From Dehalococcoidia bacterium (GTDB lineage: Bacteria > Chloroflexota > Dehalococcoidia > Bin125), in assembly GCA_963663235.2 (NCBI GenBank), contig CAXXNO010000009.1, positions 84,580 to 148,579 on the forward strand: a stretch of DNA of 64,000 bases, given 5' to 3'. Shown one piece after another: positions 6,863-20,679 of the stretch (the stretch's first letter is position 1; each line of letters starts with the position of its first letter). The notes beneath the pieces were generated by a model. That model was not told where the DNA came from. It saw nothing but the letters and a program-made list of their open reading frames with translations, and ran no database searches. The position numbers and the translations under genes are program-made.

Positions 6863-7199
6863 CGGCGGCGGCTGTGTGGGGGAAACGACCTCACCCCCTC
6901 ACCCCCTCACCCCCTCTCCATCGGCAAGCGATGGAGAGGGGGGACCGGAATGCCTGCGCCCGCCGCTGGTCAAGCTGGAGAACGTGCTGTGACGGAGCGC
7001 CGACCCGGGGTGCTGCTTTTGGAGAACGGCGGCGGCTCTGTGGGGGAAACGACCTCACCCCCTCACCCCCTCTCCATCGGCAAGCGATGGAGAGGGGGGA
7101 CCGGAATGCCTGCGCCCGCCGCTGGCCAAGCTAGAGAACGTGCTGTGACGGAACGTCGACCCGGCGTGCTGCTTTTGGAGGACGGCGGCGGCTGTGTGG
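6863..7199. repeat. Tandem array of about 156-164 bp units (2 full plus a partial), each a GC hairpin plus a copy of the carA 5' region
   Basis: Units start at 6863, 7027 and 7183; contain CCCCCTCTCCATCG-GCAAG-CGATGGAGAGGGGG and GTGACGGAGCGCCGACCCGGGGTGCTGCTTTTGGAG, matching 15831-15935. Confidence 0.9.
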
Positions 7200-7231
7200 T
7201 ACGGTGAGAGCCGCTGCCGCCGGAGGGCAAG

Positions 7232-12601: not shown

Positions 12602-13168
12602 GTGAGTAGCCCTCACCCGATCCCCACGACCGAGGTCCTCTCCGCCGCCGCGATCCGGCGCGCGCTGGTCCGGATCGCCCACGAGATCGTCGAGCGTCAC
12701 GACGACCCGGCCCGCTTGGTGCTGGTGGGCATGCGCACGCGCGGCGTCCCGCTGGCCGAGCGGATCGCGGGGGCGATCGAGCAATTCGAGGCGGTCCGCG
12801 TACCCGTCGGGGCACTGGACATCGGGCTGCACCGCGACGATCTGCCGCTGCGCGGCACCGCGCCACGGCTGCAACCCAGCAACCTCCCGGCCGCCATCGA
12901 CGAGCAGGTCGTGGTGCTCGTCGACGACGTCCTCTTCACAGGCCGCTCGATCCGGGCCGCGCTGGACGCACTGATCGACTACGGCCGTCCCGGCGCCATC
13001 GAACTGGCCGTGCTGATCGACCGCGGCCACCGCGAGTTGCCCATCCGGCCGGACTACGTAGGCAAGAACGTGCCCACGCAGCGAGCGGACGACGTGGTGG
13101 TGCGGCTGACGGAGACGGACGGGTGCGACGAGGTCATTCTGCGCTCCAGGGCGCCATCGCCCGCGTAG
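12602..13168 (+). CDS. pyrR: Pyrimidine operon regulator/uracil phosphoribosyltransferase
   Basis: [42 protein letters not shown]. Confidence 0.95.
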
Positions 13169-13181
13169 GAGAGGAGCAGCC

Positions 13182-14192
13182 ATGGTCACCAAGCCCCGGA
13201 CCGAAGCGGCCGCCGGCCGCGCGGCCGAACCCGCCGAAGAGGCCTCTGCGCAGCCGTGGCCGCACCGCCACCTCCTGGACGTGGACCAACTCACGGCCGC
13301 GGAGATCTTGCGTCTGATCGAGACCACCGAAGCCATGGAGGAGGTCCTGCACCGCCGCGTGCCGCGAACGCCCACCCTGCGCGGCGTCACTCTGTTCACG
13401 CTCTTCTACGAGGCCAGCACCCGCACGCGCGCCTCGTTCGAGCTAGCGGGCAAGGTGCTGGGCGCCGACGTCATCAACATCGCCGCGGGCAGTGCGAGCA
13501 TCGAGAAGGGGGAGTCGCTGCTCGATACCGTGCGCACGCTCCAGGCCATCGGCGCGGACATCATCGCGCTGCGCCACCCGCACGCCGGCGCGCCCTATCT
13601 CGCCGCCCGCCACGGCAGCGCGCACATCGTCAACGCGGGCGACGGCGCGCACGCCCACCCGACGCAGGCCCTGCTCGACGCCTACACGCTGCGCAAGGCG
13701 CTGGGAACCATTGAGGGCAAGCGAGTGTGCATCGTGGGGGACATCAAGCACTCGCGTGTAGCGCGATCAAACATCTGGGCGCTGACGAAGTTGGGGGCGC
13801 AGGTGACCCTGGTCGGCCCCAGCACCCTGATGCCCGCCGGGCTCAATGCGTCGCATCCGCTGGCGCTGCCATCGGTCACAACGGATGACGACTTGGACCG
13901 CGCGATCGCCGGAGCGGACGCAGTGATGACCCTGCGCCTGCAGCGGGAGCGCATGCAGAGCGCGTTGTTGCCGTCGGAGCGCGAGTACGCGCGTCGCTAC
14001 CAGATCACGCCCGCCCGCCTCGCGCGCGCCGCGCGCGGAGCGCCCGTCCTCCACCCCGGTCCGATGAACGAGGGGATCGAGATCGCGCCGGAGGTGGCGC
14101 ACGGCAGGCAAAGCGAGATCGAAAGACAGGTCGAGCACGGCGTAGCCGTGCGCATGGCCGTGCTCTACCTCTTGGGCCGGGGCACAGAATGA
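13182..14192 (+). CDS. pyrB: Aspartate carbamoyltransferase catalytic subunit
   Basis: FYEASTRTRASF, NAGDG..HPTQ, LRLQRER, HPGP. Confidence 0.95.
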   Translation: MVTKPRTEAAAGRAAEPAEEASAQPWPHRHLLDVDQLTAAEILRLIETTEAMEEVLHRRVPRTPTLRGVTLFTLFYEASTRTRASFELAGKVLGADVINIAAGSASIEKGESLLDTVRTLQAIGADIIALRHPHAGAPYLAARHGSAHIVNAGDGAHAHPTQALLDAYTLRKALGTIEGKRVCIVGDIKHSRVARSNIWALTKLGAQVTLVGPSTLMPAGLNASHPLALPSVTTDDDLDRAIAGADAVMTLRLQRERMQSALLPSEREYARRYQITPARLARAARGAPVLHPGPMNEGIEIAPEVAHGRQSEIERQVEHGVAVRMAVLYLLGRGTE

Positions 14193-14329
14193 CCGCCCTG
14201 CTGATCCGCGGGGGGCGGGTGATGGACCTCACCCCCCGGCCCCCTCTCCATCGTGACCGATGGAGAGGGGGAGAAAGAATGGGGACGGTGTTGAGCCGGG
14301 ATGCGGCGCACGAGGAGCCGGCGCGATGA
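14189..14329 (+). other. 46-codon ORF made of a duplicate pyrC start plus the hairpin element
   Basis: MTALLIRGGRVMD-LTPRPPLHRDRWRGG...EEPAR*; ATGA overlap with the pyrB stop and with the pyrC start. Confidence 0.6.
14226..14273. repeat. REP-like GC hairpin element (48 bp, identical to 17242-17289)
   Basis: ACCTCACCCCCCGG-CCCCCTCTCCATCG-TGAC-CGATGGAGAGGGGG-AG; perfect 14-bp stem. Confidence 0.9.
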
Positions 14330-15657
14330 CGGATCTGCTGATCCGCGGGGGGCGGGTGATAGACCCGGCGAACGGCGTGGATGCCCTCCTGGACGTGCTC
14401 GTGCAAGACGGGCGGATCGCGGCCGTCGGCGTCGACGCGCCGGTCGACGCGCCCGTGCTGGACGCCAGCGGGCTGGTCGTGGCGGCCGGCTTCGTCGACC
14501 TGCACACGCACCTGCGGGAGCCGGGCGAAGAGCACAAAGAGACCATCGCCAGCGGGACCGCCGCCGCCGCCCGTGGCGGCTTCACCACCGTCTGTGCCAT
14601 GCCGAACACGAGCCCAGCGATGGACAGCGCGGCCGTGGTGGCGCAGGTGCTGAACGCCGCCCGGGGAGCGCCGGCCCGGGTGCTGCCCGTCGGCGCGATC
14701 ACCAAGGGACGCGCCGGCAAAGAGCTGGCCGAGATGGAGGAGTTGCGCGCGGCCGGCGTCGTGGCGTTCAGCGACGACGGCGCCGGCGTCGCCGACGGCG
14801 GCGTAGCCCGCCGGGCCTGCGAGTACGCCGCCGACCTGGGCCTACCGATCAGCGAACACTGCGAGGACCCGGCCCTGGCCGAGGGCGGCCTGATGCACGA
14901 AGGCGCCATCGCAACGCGGCTCGGCCTGCCCGCACAGCCGGCCGAAGCCGAAGTGGCCATGGTCGAGCGCGACCTGCGCCTGGCGGAACGGACCGGCGTC
15001 CGCCTGCACCTGGCCCATATCAGCACGGCGGCGGCGTGCGCGGCGATCGCAAGCGCCAAGGCGCGCGGTCTCTTGGTGACCGCGGAAGTCACGCCCCATC
15101 ACCTCTTCCTCACCGACGCCGCCGTCGCCGGAGCCGCCGAGACGCCAGGCGCCCTCGCCTACGACACCAACGCCAAGGTCAACCCGCCGCTGCGCAGCGC
15201 GGACGACATCGCCGCCTGCATCGAGGCGCTGGCGGAGGGCGTGCTGGATGCCGTGGCCACGGACCACGCCCCACACGCGATCCCCGACAAGCTTTGCGAG
15301 TTCGACCGCGCCGCTTTCGGGATCAGTGGCTTGGAGACGGCCTTCGGCGTGCTGGGGACGCTGGTGGCGCGGGGCGCGTTTCCACTGGCGACTCCTCTGG
15401 CGACCGTGATCGAGCGGCTGACCATCGGGCCGGTGCGGGCGTGGGGGCTGGACCGGGGCGACTTGACCGGGCTGGGGACGTTGGGCATCGGCGCGCCCGC
15501 GGACGTGGCGATCATCGATCCGGACGCGGTGTGGACGGTGAAGCCTGAGAGGTTCGCATCGATGGGGAAGAACACGCCGCTGGCGGGGCGGGAGCTGACG
15601 GGCCGGGTGGTGGCGACGGTGTTCGGGGGTCGGGTGGTACACGAGGAACGGGAGTAG
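14326..15657 (+). CDS. pyrC: Dihydroorotase
   Basis: GFVDLHTHLREPG, MPNT, EVTPHHL, KVNPPLR, ATDHAPH. Confidence 0.95.
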   Translation: MTDLLIRGGRVIDPANGVDALLDVLVQDGRIAAVGVDAPVDAPVLDASGLVVAAGFVDLHTHLREPGEEHKETIASGTAAAARGGFTTVCAMPNTSPAMDSAAVVAQVLNAARGAPARVLPVGAITKGRAGKELAEMEELRAAGVVAFSDDGAGVADGGVARRACEYAADLGLPISEHCEDPALAEGGLMHEGAIATRLGLPAQPAEAEVAMVERDLRLAERTGVRLHLAHISTAAACAAIASAKARGLLVTAEVTPHHLFLTDAAVAGAAETPGALAYDTNAKVNPPLRSADDIAACIEALAEGVLDAVATDHAPHAIPDKLCEFDRAAFGISGLETAFGVLGTLVARGAFPLATPLATVIERLTIGPVRAWGLDRGDLTGLGTLGIGAPADVAIIDPDAVWTVKPERFASMGKNTPLAGRELTGRVVATVFGGRVVHEERE

Positions 15658-15889
15658 ATGAGCGAGCGGCAGCCGGCGGCGCTGGTGCTGGAGGACGGGG
15701 GCGTCTTCTGGGGGGAACGACCTCACCCCCTAACCCCCTCTCCATCGGCAAGCGATGGAGAGGGGGAACGCGCGAGGATACTCCCTGTTCGGGCGGGGCA
15801 GGCCGGCACGAGTGGATCCCAGGAGGGAAGGATGGAGAGGGGGGACCGGAATACCTGCGCCCGCCGATGGCCAAGCTGGAGAACGTGCT
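15658..15889 (+). repeat. Duplicate carA start (MSERQPAALVLEDGGVFWGE) followed by the hairpin element and an orphan second right arm
   Basis: Stem 15734-15747/15753-15766; extra GATGGAGAGGGGGG at 15831-15844; not in frame with carA. Confidence 0.85.
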
Positions 15890-17005
15890 GTGACGGAGCG
15901 CCGGCCCGGCGTGCTGGTTTTGGAGGACGGCGGTGTCCTGCGCGGCCATCGCATCGGCGCGGACGGCGAGGCGTGGGGCGAAGTGGTGTTCAACACATCG
16001 ATGACCGGCTACCAAGAGATGTTGACCGACCCCTCCTACGCCGGGCAGATCCTGGCGCTCACGTATCCGCTGATCGGCAACTACGGGCTGGAACCCCCGA
16101 TCGACGAGAGCGCGCGGGTGCAGGTGCGCGGCCTGGTGGTGCGCGAAGACTGCCAAGCGCCCAGCCATCCTCACGGCGGCGTCACGCTGCACGAGTACCT
16201 CCTGGCCGCCGGCATCCCCGGCCTGGCGGGGGTCGACACGCGCGCGCTCACGCGCCGGCTGCGGAAGCGGGGCGTGATGCAAGGGCTGATCGTCGAGCCC
16301 GCGGAGATCGAGCGCGCGCGCGCGCGCCTGGCGGACCTGCCCGCCTACGACAGCCAGGACTTCACGGGGTCGGTGAGCGCGGCGGCGGCGTACGACTGGG
16401 AGCGGGGGCCGGTCGATGTGGGATCGACGCGAGGCGGTCACCGCATCGTCGTGCTGGACGAAGGCTTGAAGTACAACATCCTGCGCAGCCTGCGGGCGCG
16501 CGACTGTCGAGTGACCGTCGTGCCGGCGCACACCCCGGCGGCGGAGGTGTTGGCGCTGGAGCCGGACGGGGTGGTGCTATCGCCGGGGCCCGGCGACCCG
16601 GCGCTGCGCGACGCGCAGGTGGAGACGACCAAGCGGCTGCTGGGTCGCGTGCCGCTGATGGGCATCTGCCTGGGGCACCAAATGATCGCGCGGGCGCTGG
16701 GGGCTGGCACGTTCAAGCTGAAGTTCGGCCACCGCGGCGGCAACCATCCGGTCAAGGAGCTGAGCACGGGGCGCGTTTCCATCACGGCGCAGAACCACGG
16801 CTACGCGGTCGACCCGGAGAGGCTGGAGGGGGGCGCGTCGGTGAGCCACATCAACCTGCACGACGGGACGGTCGAGGGGCTGACGCATCGCGAGTATCCA
16901 TTGGTGTCGATCCAGTACCACTCGGAGGCGTCGCCGGGGCCGCTGGACAACGGGTATTTGTTCGACCGGTTCTTGGAGATGGTGCGTGAGGCGAAGGGGG
17001 GCTGA
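15890..17005 (+). CDS. carA: Carbamoyl-phosphate synthase small subunit
   Basis: LVLEDG, GEVVFNTSMTGYQE, SPGPGDP, GICLGHQ, QYHSEASPGP; GTG start with GGAG RBS. Confidence 0.95.
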   Translation: MTERRPGVLVLEDGGVLRGHRIGADGEAWGEVVFNTSMTGYQEMLTDPSYAGQILALTYPLIGNYGLEPPIDESARVQVRGLVVREDCQAPSHPHGGVTLHEYLLAAGIPGLAGVDTRALTRRLRKRGVMQGLIVEPAEIERARARLADLPAYDSQDFTGSVSAAAAYDWERGPVDVGSTRGGHRIVVLDEGLKYNILRSLRARDCRVTVVPAHTPAAEVLALEPDGVVLSPGPGDPALRDAQVETTKRLLGRVPLMGICLGHQMIARALGAGTFKLKFGHRGGNHPVKELSTGRVSITAQNHGYAVDPERLEGGASVSHINLHDGTVEGLTHREYPLVSIQYHSEASPGPLDNGYLFDRFLEMVREAKGG

Positions 17006-17343
17006 TGGGCACACGGTTGCCGGGAACCGGCATGCTCCTGTTGCTCGCGGTAACGGCGGGAACCGTCGGGACCGTGTCGTTCGGGTTCGGGCTGGCGTGC
17101 TTCGCGAGCGGCGACGCGGGGGTTGACTGCGCGGTCCTCACGGTTGCCGTGCCGTTCGTCGCGTGGCCGTTGGGGATCGCGCTGGCGATCCTGGGAGCGG
17201 CGCGGCGGGGCTGGCTGGTGGCTTTCGAGGAGGAGGAGAGAACCTCACCCCCCGGCCCCCTCTCCATCGTGACCGATGGAGAGGGGGAGCAAGCATCGGC
17301 ATCGTCGAAGGCACGCTCGACGGCGGGGGAGAGGCGAGGATGA
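17005..17343 (+). CDS. Small membrane protein (about 2 TM) whose C-terminus is read through the hairpin element
   Basis: TGATG coupling to the carA stop; two hydrophobic segments; tail TSPPGPLSIVTDGEGE is encoded by the repeat. Confidence 0.5.
   Translation: MGTRLPGTGMLLLLAVTAGTVGTVSFGFGLACFASGDAGVDCAVLTVAVPFVAWPLGIALAILGAARRGWLVAFEEEERTSPPGPLSIVTDGEGEQASASSKARSTAGERRG
17242..17289. repeat. REP-like GC hairpin element
   Basis: 48/48 identical to 14226-14273. Confidence 0.9.
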
Positions 17344-17357
17344 ACGGGTGAGCAGCC

Positions 17358-20300
17358 GTGCATAAGCCTCGCAAGGTGCTGATCATCGGCAGCGGGCCGA
17401 TCGTCATCGGGCAGGCGGCCGAGTTCGACTACGCCGGCACGCAGGCCTGCAAGGCGATGCGCGAGGAGGGCGTGACCTCCGTCCTAGTGAACTCGAACCC
17501 GGCGACGATCATGACCGACGAGGACGTGGCGGACGTGGTCTACATCGAACCGCTGACCGTCGACGTGCTCACCCGCGTGATCGAGCGGGAGCGGCCGGAC
17601 GGCCTGCTGCCCACGCTGGGCGGGCAAACGGCGCTGAACCTGGCGGTGGAGCTGGCCGACGCGGGGGTGCTAGAGCGCCACAACGTGCGGCTGCTGGGCA
17701 CGCCGCTGGAGACGATCAAGAACGCCGAGGACCGCGAGCGCTTCAAAACCATGCTGCGAGCGATCGACGAGCCATCGCCGCCGAGCCGCACGGTTACCAC
17801 GGCGAAGGAAGCGGACCAAGCGCTCGCGGAGATCGGCCTGCCGGCGGTGATCCGCCCCGCGTACACCCTGGGAGGAACGGGCGGCGGCATCGCGCGGACG
17901 AGCGACGAGTTCGCCACGCTCGTCCGCGGCGGACTGGCGGCCAGCCCAATCACCCAAGTGTTAATCGAGCAGTCCCTGCTGGGCTGGAAGGAGATCGAGT
18001 ACGAGGTGATGCGGGACGCCGCCGACACCTGCATCACGGTCTGCAACATGGAAAACCTGGACCCGATGGGCGTGCACACGGGCGACTCGATCGTCGTCGC
18101 GCCCAGCCAGACGCTCTCCGACAAAGACTACCAGCGGCTGCGATCGGCGGCGCTCAAGATCATCCGGGCGCTGGGGATCGAAGGCGGCTGCAACATCCAG
18201 TTCGCGCTTGCGCCGCGTCCCGACATCGTGGAGTGGGGCCCTGCGCCGGACGACGGCTCCCTGCCCTACCACGTGATTGAGGTCAACCCGCGCGTCAGCC
18301 GATCATCGGCGCTGGCCAGCAAAGCGACCGGCTACCCGATCGCACGGGTGGCGGCGAAGATCGCCGCGGGGAAGCGGCTGGACGAAATCCCGAACGCGGT
18401 CACGAGCAAGACCAGCGCCGCGTTCGAGCCGGCGCTGGACTACGTCGTGGTCAAGATCCCGCGGTGGCCGTTCGACAAGTTCGGCGCCGGCGACCGTTCC
18501 CTGGGCACGCAGATGAAGGCCACCGGGGAAGTCATGGCTATCGAGCGCAGCTTCGGCGCTGCCTTGCAGAAGGCCGTGCGCTCGCTGGAGATCGGTGGCC
18601 GCACATTGCTGTGGGAGGAGCGCGGGGATCTGGATCCCTCGACCGCCGCGCAGACCGCCACGGACAACCGCCTCTGGCACCTCATGGCCGCGCTGCGTCG
18701 CGACGCGGATCCCATCGCCCTAGCCAAGCGGACGGGGATCGATCCGTGGTTCCTGGACCGACTGCTAGAGCTGGTCCGCATGGAGCAGCGGCTGCTGTCG
18801 GAGCCGCTGCTCCACGCCTTGCTCTACGAGGCCAAGCGCACGGGGTTCAGCGACGAACAGATCGCCAACCTGTCCGGCTCCGTCACCGAGAAAGTGCGCC
18901 AGCTGCGGATCGATCGGGGCATCCGACCCGTCTACAAGATGGTCGATACCTGCGCCGCCGAGTTCGACGCCGCCACGCCGTATTTCTACTCCACCTACGA
19001 GGAGGAGAATGAAGCGCTCCCCGACGCGACTCCCAGGGCGCTAGTCATCGGCAGCGGGCCGATCCGCATCGGCCAGGGGATCGAGTTCGACTACTGCTCG
19101 GTGAAAGCGGCGCAGGCGCTGCAGGCGGCCGGCTACGCGGCGATCATGGCCAACAGCAACCCGGAGACGGTCTCCACCGACTTCGACACCTCCAACCGCC
19201 TCTATTTTGAGCCGCTCGACGAAGAGGCCGTGCGCGACATCCTGGACAACGAACAAGGGCGCGACGGCGGCGCCCCCGTGGCCAGCATCCTGCAGTTCGG
19301 CGGCCAGACCGCGATCAACCTCGCCGAACCGCTCAGCGTCGCGGCGCAGCCCATCCTGGGCTCATCCGCGGAGGCCATCGATCGGGCCGAAGACCGCAAG
19401 CGCTTCGAGGCGTTCCTGGCGGACCTCGGCATCCCCCAGCCCCCCGGCACCACCGTCACCAACGTCGAGGATGCGGTGATCGCGGCGGAGACCATCGGCT
19501 ATCCGGTGGTGGTACGCCCGTCCTACGTGCTCGGCGGGCGGGCGATGGAGATCGTGCAGGATCCGAGCGAGGTGGCACGCTACATGAACGAAGCGCTGGA
19601 GTCGTCACCCGACCGGCCGGTGCTGATCGACAGGTACCTCGCCGGGCTGGAGGTGGAGGTCGACGCCATCTGCGACGGCCAGCAGGTGCTGATCCCCGGC
19701 ATCATGGAGCACATCGAGCGGGCTGGCGTCCACTCCGGCGACTCCATGGCCGTCTATCCCGCCCCCAGCCTGCGCCCCGAAGAGGTGGAGACGATCACCG
19801 CCTACACGCGGCAGATCGGCCTGGCGTTGGAGGTGCGCGGCCTGATGAACGCCCAGTACGTCGTGATGCGGCGCGGGGAGGAGAGCGACATCTTCGTCCT
19901 GGAGGTGAACCCCCGCGCCAGCCGCACCGTCCCCTTTCTCAGCAAAGTGACCACCGTGCCCATGGTCCACGTGGCCGATCAATGTGATGCTGGGTCGCAG
20001 CCTGGCGGATCAGGGCTACCCCGACGGTCTCTGGCCGGAGCGCGACCTCGTGGCGATCAAAGCGCCGGTGTTCAGCATGGCCAAGCTCACCGGCGTCGAC
20101 ACCTACCTGGGCCCCGAGATGAAATCCACCGGCGAAGTGATGGGCATCGACCGGACCCTGGAGCGCGCCCTGGCCAAGGCGCTGCTGGCCGCGGACGCAT
20201 CGCTGCCGCGCGACGGGACCGTGCTGCTGAGCATCGCCGACAGGGACAAGCCCAGCGCGATTCCCATGATCCGCAACCTGGGCGCCGCGGGCTACCGCAT

Positions 20301-20679
20301 CTTTGCCACGCCCGGCACCGCCGACCTCGTCCAAGGACTGGGGGTGAAGGTGACCATCGTGCCCAAGCGGCTGCATGAGGGTGATCCCACGGTGATCGAG
20401 CTGGTGCGCCAGCACACGGTCGATTTCGTGGTCAACACGCCGGAGGGACGCCGGGCGCCGCTGCGGGACGGGTTCGCCATCCGCCGCGCCGCCAGCGAGG
20501 AGGGCATCCCCTGCTTCACCAGCATCGACACCGCGGCTCAGGCGGTGGCGGCCATGGTCACACACAGCGGCGACTACAACGTGCTGCCGCTGAGCGACTA
20601 CACGGGGCGGGGGCAGTCAGCATCGCGCGCGCGGGCGCGCTCAAGCGAACCGGTGACCGAGCCGGAGCGTCCCGCGTGA
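17358..20679 (+). CDS. carB: Carbamoyl-phosphate synthase large subunit (one extra base near 19977, probably an assembly error)
   Basis: [54 protein letters not shown]; MGS domain in the second frame. Confidence 0.92.

Follow-up and report, generated by a model that had tools for sequence, protein, structure and literature searches.

The subject of this analysis is a short hairpin repeat that lies between two copies of the start of pyrC, in a stretch of 64,000 nucleotides (nt) from a Dehalococcoidia bacterium (GTDB Chloroflexota; Bin125). This stretch, referred to below as the window, covers positions 84,580-148,579 of the forward strand of contig CAXXNO010000009.1 (assembly GCA_963663235.2) and belongs to a 2.75-Mb draft genome (G000) of 14 contigs that is 92% complete. 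The junction of interest begins with pyrB, encoding aspartate carbamoyltransferase (13182..14192, forward strand; NCBIfam NF002032, E 2.5e-113; stop codon TGA at 14190-14192), and leads into pyrC, encoding dihydroorotase (14326..15657, forward strand; NCBIfam TIGR00857, 404.5 bits against a cut-off of 279.05). Between the two, and on the same strand, we find a copy of pyrC nt 1-40 that is detached from the gene (14189..14228), the 48-nt core of the repeat element (14226..14273; identical at 48 of 48 bases to window positions 17242-17289) and a unique spacer of 52 nt (14274..14325), after which the second copy of pyrC nt 1-40 (14326..14365) forms the working start of the gene. The locus therefore has the structure of a duplication-insertion: pyrC nt 1-40, the 48-nt hairpin repeat, the 52-nt spacer, and pyrC nt 1-40 once more together with the rest of the gene.

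The two copies are identical apart from positions 6, 8, 9 and 35 (36 of 40 bases), and their local alignment score of 60 compares with 17.1 ± 2.5 for shuffled sequences (maximum 26, n = 300): what is observed at pyrC exceeds chance. They are separated by 97 nt, which gives a period of 137 nt, and the insert is positioned after codon 13 plus one base of the gene. The bases ACC are common to the end of the first copy and the start of the element, which begins where this copy ends. At the upstream edge, the ATG at 14189-14191 overlaps the pyrB stop codon, and from it runs an open reading frame (ORF) of 46 codons (14189..14329, forward strand) whose terminal TGA (14327-14329) overlaps the pyrC ATG (14326-14328). 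This ORF is the only one in the insert and has no match to any protein family; a recombinase gene is absent from the insert. The upstream copy retains the pyrB stop codon, whilst the downstream copy serves as the working start of pyrC, with the spacer providing a GAGGAG motif (14312-14317) 8 nt before its ATG. Since other dihydroorotase profiles in NCBIfam align from residues 1-4 of the protein starting at 14326, this position is taken as the working start, with its first 13 codons lying within the family model. An initial annotation, made from the sequence alone, had described the duplicated pyrC start, a hairpin element starting exactly at the end of the first copy, an ORF overlapping both the pyrB stop and the pyrC ATG, and an entry of the element near codon 13 with regeneration of the gene start; the observations given above bear out this description at each point.

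The same annotation had proposed searching for the empty site in relatives, and it was indeed found. We examined the junction at the 3' end of pyrB in 19 loci of relatives, all belonging to other genera: there is no genome of the same genus among the 40 relatives, and the closest match from a metagenome scan exhibits 66% amino-acid identity. In 17 of these loci pyrB and pyrC overlap by ATGA or GTGA and pyrC is uninterrupted, whilst carA comes after pyrB in 2 of the 19; the element, whether hairpin or tag, is present at the pyrB 3' junction in 0 of 19. As all 17 of the 17 relatives with adjacent pyrB and pyrC have the 4-base overlap and lack the insert, the 137-nt period is an addition in this lineage. 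The comparison shows the ancestral state, a 4-base overlap of pyrB and pyrC, and it is the upstream pyrC copy, with its ATGA overlap with the pyrB stop, that occupies the ancestral position.

The hairpin repeat and its flanking duplications

The element at pyrC consists of a C-rich tag followed by a hairpin with arms at 14240-14253 and 14258-14271 (14-bp stem, 4-nt loop). With up to two mismatches allowed, 13 instances of its arm motif are found in the window where 1.57 would be expected, and the draft genome contains 42 hairpins according to a pattern search and 41 full profile matches, with one locus counted on both strands. The copies cluster in few regions and are nearly all intergenic, often lying 13-75 nt after a stop codon, and they are mixed with other repeat modules that share the same initial tag, giving rise to mosaics and tandem arrays. 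Mosaic arrays, in which the modules all start with the element's tag, are located on contig 4 (167200-168800) and contig 12 (366400-368560 and 374250-374700); they include a variant with a longer palindrome and modules with a recurring 'TTCGAC...CTCAGG' motif, and on contig 4 each element is followed by a recurring piece of ~35 nt that by eye resembles the 3' portion of the adjacent gene on the reverse strand.

The element is also found well outside this genome. An exact 27-nt motif comprising the tag and the first arm is present in 9 of 41 relatives and at no fewer than 127 places (at least) in a collection of species-representative genomes; among the matches listed, the titles name several classes of Chloroflexota as well as Acidobacteriota, Myxococcota and Armatimonadota. 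Across those phyla the 45-nt core (tag and hairpin) is nearly letter-identical and has sharp edges, and the loop variants are lineage-specific, the loop TGAC being common only to the copies at 14226-14273 and 17242-17289. A conserved A in one arm breaks a stem pair in many copies. The conserved flank CCTCACCCCC is present on one side only in the aligned copies, and in some copies from other genomes an inverted partner of this 5' tag follows or precedes the core; at pyrC, the predicted pairing partner of the tag lies in the G-rich codons of pyrC itself.

Database searches did not provide a name for this element: Rfam holds no family for it, the sole row returned being a sub-threshold match to a CRISPR repeat at 16570-16607, and the motif gave 0 matches in viral contigs. 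A CRISPR array was considered and rejected, as neither the periods (114-165 nt) nor the mosaic make-up of the modules agrees with such an array, and so was a PyrR attenuator, given that the hairpin is a genome-wide repeat. Our literature search, outside which subscription journals largely fell, retrieved no paper on the element family or on regenerated gene ends around bacterial repeats. A transposase of the type associated with repetitive extragenic palindromic (REP) sequences (REP-associated tyrosine transposase, RAYT), for which the initial annotation had advised looking, was found neither in the genome nor in its family relatives: the Y1 transposase profile PF01797 had 0 matches in the 92% complete G000 and was present in 0 of 24 family relatives, with the control positive in 6 of 14 known genomes. 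Reverse transcriptase and Ku were likewise not found in this genome at the same completeness.

To count flanking duplications, the 60-70 nt preceding each copy were aligned to the 400 nt that follow it, and scores of at least 36 were accepted; random genomic controls average 16-20 and rarely reach up to 52. For other genomes, 98 of 130 motif matches were tested (26 were dropped as the second arm was not found by the pattern, and 6 due to short flanks), of which 2 exhibit a flanking duplication, both in one tandem array. Relatives from the family and class gave 5 of 25 copies, 4 of these in two arrays, and G000 itself 14 of 41. In 8 of the 14 cases from G000 the repeated piece consists of other repeat modules, as recognised by copies elsewhere in the genome for 5 and by reading the sequence for 3, and the remaining 6 copies duplicate unique sequence at 4 loci: pyrC, carA, the region upstream of rpmJ and a convergent gene pair. 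The geometry is the same at all unique-sequence cases, with the upstream repeat copy abutting the 5' end of the element and a spacer parting its 3' end from the downstream copy, and in each the repeat restores a needed feature, namely the pyrC start, the carA start, the surroundings of the rpmJ -10 box and the gene 3' end at the convergent pair. An association of the hairpin with duplicated gene starts as a rule, which the initial annotation had suggested checking, does not emerge from these counts: most copies lack such a duplication (96 of 98 in other genomes, 20 of 25 in the relatives), and only 2 of the ~40 copies in this genome sit between duplicated gene starts. Taken together, these data show the hairpin to be a non-autonomous, REP-like or MITE-like family (MITE, miniature inverted-repeat transposable element) that is normally intergenic and normally without long flanking duplication. 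The core of the initial reading, insertion after codon 13 with a regenerated start, holds, but its generalisation does not, as the duplication is the exception.

Further junctions and the coupled reading frame

The second duplicated gene start follows at once. Directly after the pyrC stop codon lies the orphaned ancestral start of carA (15658..15708), followed on the same forward strand by an element copy (15720..15766), a spacer of 123 nt (15767..15889) that comprises half of a variant hairpin (15830-15843) and a 46-nt leader, and carA itself (15890..17005; NCBIfam TIGR01368, E 1.2e-132, matched from residue 8). The working start (GTG; 15890-15940) is a diverged second copy of the gene start, and GGAG at 15878-15881 precedes the GTG by 8 nt; both new gene starts, those of pyrC and of carA, thus follow, at a distance of 8 nt, a spacer motif resembling a Shine-Dalgarno (SD) sequence. 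Between the two carA copies, 15 of 51 bases are different, including 6 synonymous changes in conserved codons, and the orphaned copy is closer than the working copy to 17 of 18 relatives, with a tie in L016 (38 matches each); compared to the relative G003, the orphaned copy matches at 45 of 51 bases and the working copy at 36 of 51. This divergence and the likeness of the orphan to the relatives are more in line with diverged alleles having been exchanged than with the target having been duplicated faithfully. In case of pyrC, neither copy is closer to the relatives (summed matches of 518 and 502). The carA leader also contains an 8-codon ORF (15867-15893) ending on a TGA that overlaps the carA GTG, and this ORF is absent from both leader copies upstream of rpmJ.

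These leader copies are part of two tandem units of 156 nt, each consisting of element, leader and carA-like start, that lie upstream of rpmJ (6863..7199, forward strand) and match the carA locus at 92-95% identity. A direct repeat of 16-17 nt encloses these units and ends just before a conserved extended -10 box, and relatives lack ~310 nt upstream of rpmJ. The box itself, TG-extended and -10-like, lies ~30-40 nt before rpmJ and is common to relatives (window 7183-7210). As the inserted units end at its upstream edge, the region upstream of the rpmJ box is now repeat-derived.

On contig 4, two convergent genes whose stop codons overlap in CTAG in the relatives G009 and G015 are here parted by two units, each of an element and another repeat module, and the last 16-27 nt of one gene are present three times. 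G003 (contig 2) exhibits two element copies at the same convergent junction, one of them with the same unusual arm variant, and this insertion may therefore predate the split of the genera of G000 and G003. In a genome from another family (G030), the last 172 nt of a gene encoding a STAS domain are duplicated at ~85% identity around an element plus ~90 nt, and the second gene copy carries frameshifts.

A different outcome is seen 3 kb from pyrC, in a small ORF for a membrane protein between carA and carB (17005..17343, forward strand), which is conserved in G004, G009 and G020 and has no match in Pfam or NCBIfam. The element copy in its tail (17242-17289), identical to that at pyrC, is in frame, adds 16 codons and lacks a flanking duplication; insertion of the element therefore does not need a duplication. 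The operon also includes pyrR (12602-13168), upstream of pyrB, and carB (17358-20378; 1006 codons), for which residues 5-880 match positions 8-864 of a 1058-position profile and the last 126 residues lie outside the best profile match.

The initial annotation had further held that translational coupling is preserved at pyrC. The frame layout allows it: ribosomes that have terminated at the pyrB stop could begin again at the former pyrC ATG (14189), translate 46 codons across the hairpin and terminate within the ATGA that opens pyrC, from where they would be relayed to this gene. On the arrangement of the frames such a relay probably operates; alternatively, GAGGAG may serve pyrC on its own. 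What does not stand is coupling as a rule. For double coupling to arise, the phase has to be right (1 in 3) and 32 codons have to be free of stops (0.60 at the stop frequency of the genome), and therefore ~0.2 of such inserts would be doubly coupled by chance; at carA, the frame from the orphaned ATG runs out of frame to 16989, and the absence of double coupling at this gene means that coupling through a mini-ORF is not a rule.

At the RNA level, a stretch of 166 nt is predicted to fold with -86.7 kcal/mol (z = -3.9): in this predicted structure the hairpin forms, and the G-rich codons 8-11 of the first pyrC copy pair with the C-rich tag, a G-rich run being found in the same place in most copies in the genome. 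No promoter-like site was detected in a scan of 13000-17600, and a terminator scan of the same 4.6 kb gave one terminator-like site, which is the chance level of shuffled sequences; this site, composed of a 6-pair stem and a T run, lies at 15898-15922, within the first codons of the working carA copy. REP elements act as a barrier to RNA decay, and by analogy the hairpin could do the same here.

Origin and meaning of the duplication

As to the steps by which these structures arose, which we infer from their present form, we tentatively favour, with a confidence that stays somewhat short of even, a rare recombinational duplication-insertion at the 5' edge of the element that was kept as overlapping genes leave no neutral space. 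The duplication would have occurred without a staggered cut by a transposase, and we agree with the initial annotation that it is not a normal target duplication of an insertion sequence, a diverged repeat of 40 bp not being the usual footprint of a transposase. Instead, recombination or a replication error at the 5' edge of the element, either a template switch or an unequal or homeologous exchange, would have created two junctions, one at the element edge, where ACC is common to both sides, and the other at the start codon. Selection would then have kept only those products that regained the displaced start behind the insert, at a workable SD distance; we propose that their survival reflects the lack of a neutral insertion site between two overlapping biosynthetic genes. 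This recombination accounts for the rarity of the repeats, for their variable length (16-172 nt) and for the features that they restore.

Several observations weigh against this explanation. No donor of the 52-nt spacer was found in the genome or in relatives: exact 11-14-mers of the spacer occur at chance level with no excess nearby, and in comparisons with the pyrB 3' end, the flank of the sister copy and the carA spacer, shuffled sequences reach the score in fractions of 0.53, 0.67 and 0.23, respectively. Microhomology is not visible at the junction of spacer and ATG, and the carA-start module was not encountered elsewhere in 200 sampled genomes of the class, so that of 201 genomes only this one carries it. 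Furthermore, at pyrC and carA (start codon) and at the convergent pair (overlapping stops) the repeat begins, on its left side, exactly at a gene boundary. A random breakpoint does not predict this, and the only explanations that we can offer are selection for SD spacing and an allele whose upstream context was different; the constant abutment of the 5' end of the element on the upstream copy hints at a step driven by the element. In a test for a foreign tract after the new starts, sliding protein and nucleotide identity gave no clear break, although this comparison with four distant relatives is underpowered (third-position identity to them is 45-75% throughout). That the relay of ribosomes to pyrC is read from the frames counts on the same side. 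Timing is a separate matter: the pyrC copies have diverged at 4 of 40 bases, whereas over its 48 bases the element is identical to its sister copy at 17242-17289. At equal rates an absence of change in 48 bases would have a probability of ~0.006, and hence either the sister copy is younger or the element cores have been homogenised.

That the element's own insertion makes long target duplications of variable length (16 to 172 nt), through staggered nicks or through target-primed copying with the downstream flank, we regard as unlikely. Such a process would agree with the common geometry at pyrC, carA, the rpmJ-upstream region, the convergent pair and the STAS-domain gene of G030, and with the fact that a carA-start module moved with the element to the rpmJ locus. 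However, such a repeat is missing from 96 of the 98 copies tested in other genomes, from 20 of the 25 in relatives and from the in-frame copy 3 kb away, and neither a REP-type transposase nor reverse transcriptase or Ku was found; moreover, a fresh duplication should be identical, whereas the carA copies differ at 15 of 51 bases and the orphan still matches the relatives.

A stepwise route appears doubtful to a similar degree. Here, the element and spacer would have entered at the ATGA overlap, duplicating no more than a few bases and doing no harm, after which the unit was tandemly duplicated and the first element and spacer were lost. Arrays of units do exist (upstream of rpmJ with a period of 156, at the convergent pair, on contig 12 at 368 kb, and in L234 and L255), the route explains why the repeat begins exactly at the start codon, and duplications of 2-10 bp are what MITEs normally make according to PMC11602168. 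Against this, three events are needed, one of them a precise loss, the synonymous divergence of the carA copies is not explained, and no intermediate is seen among relatives of other genera and metagenome contigs of at most 66% amino-acid identity.

We also consider, as a speculative and rather improbable extension, that the element of 45-48 nt spreads without a known transposase, by hairpin- or homology-driven copying that carries adjacent host sequence along. Units of gene end, element and spacer would then be mobile cassettes that settle in spacer-less junctions by regenerating a start, a stop or a promoter edge, and the carA-start unit before rpmJ would be one caught after such a move.

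The last alternative is an artefact of assembly, in which a collapsed or chimeric repeat gave a false duplication; in its favour are the draft state of the genome (14 contigs) and the breaks of short-read graphs at the hairpin, but contigs of different studies agree through the first copy, element, spacer and second copy, which leaves this explanation with practically no probability. The stretch is contained in 20 listed public runs from 8 studies, and contigs (Logan) were compared from four runs of three studies. Record 12 of X19 spans 14198-15001 with zero differences, records 25 and 26 of X3 span 13009-14255 (pyrB into the hairpin) and 14226-15188 (element tag into pyrC), and record 2 of X10 likewise extends from pyrB into the hairpin; contigs end at the hairpin because it is a repeat, as expected. 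None of the 15 listed contig joints skips the 137-nt period, but as there are 91 further joints we draw no inference from this. The possibility of an assembly duplication, raised at the outset as a potential refutation, is thereby answered, as contigs from other public studies reproduce the layout.

Mobile DNA is usually assumed to have no access to overlapping genes within operons. At pyrC, a small repeat has entered between overlapping biosynthetic genes with the displaced start duplicated behind it, and the locus is well suited to studying how hairpin repeats remodel tight junctions: it is accompanied by a second gene start, a promoter edge, gene 3' ends and a unit copied elsewhere, and a matching transposase was not found. 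How the element is conserved and by what it is moved are questions raised by its near-identity in distant phyla, and this conservation, together with the recurrence at tight junctions, deserves attention most. Were the 46-codon ORF indeed to relay ribosomes, it would provide a natural example of the bicistronic design known from expression engineering.

Comparison with known systems

The pyrC layout is real and recurs nearby, and in its make-up the repeat resembles known kinds of small bacterial repeats. With REP sequences and their composites (BIME, REPIN) it shares a short GC-rich palindrome, a copy number in the tens, a mostly intergenic location, often just after a stop codon, and the formation of mosaics. 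It differs from them in its conserved tag, which is CCTCACCCCC rather than the GTAG or CGTC that define REP tags in PMC3733652: inspection of the aligned copies by eye, without a pattern search, revealed neither of them at the ends of the element. A further difference from REP and REPIN sequences is that no Y1 (RAYT) transposase was found in the genome (92% complete) or in 24 family relatives, and from REP and BIME the arrangement of copies in direct arrays instead of inverted pairs. MITEs such as Correia and ERIC are similarly small and non-coding, and where, in some genomes, the 5' tag has an inverted partner close to the core, this may recall their terminal inverted repeats; the repeats around the element are, however, diverged and 16-172 nt long (40 nt at pyrC), as opposed to the 2-10 bp given for MITEs in PMC11602168.

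The copy at 17242-17289, with its 48 nt in frame in a conserved small ORF, resembles the palindromic elements of Rickettsia and the intragenic REPs reported in PMC3733652. In contrast to the Rickettsia elements, the copies at pyrC and carA are not tolerated in frame but bypassed by a regenerated gene start. This regeneration is shared with integrating elements that carry a spare gene end, where likewise a diverged duplicate of a gene terminus flanks the insert and the gene stays whole. Prophage e14 in icd is an integrating element of this type. Compared to these, the insert at pyrC is ~100 nt in length and without a recombinase, and the spacers and duplicated ends vary by locus.

The closest functional parallel is provided by mycobacterial interspersed repetitive units (MIRUs), which, as PMC12548453 states with reference to Supply et al. 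1997, insert at start codons and exhibit an ORF of their own that is coupled to the gene by a 4-base overlap, a coupling that is thought there to allow insertion with little effect on expression. On the basis of layout, both systems are short repeats within operons with an ORF coupled by a 4-base overlap, as far as this source describes the MIRUs. An internal ORF that in this manner overlaps both the upstream stop and the downstream start was encountered at pyrC only and not at carA. The coupled ORF at pyrC also differs from that of the MIRUs in its origin, being in part a duplicate of the first 13 codons of the very gene into which the element was inserted.

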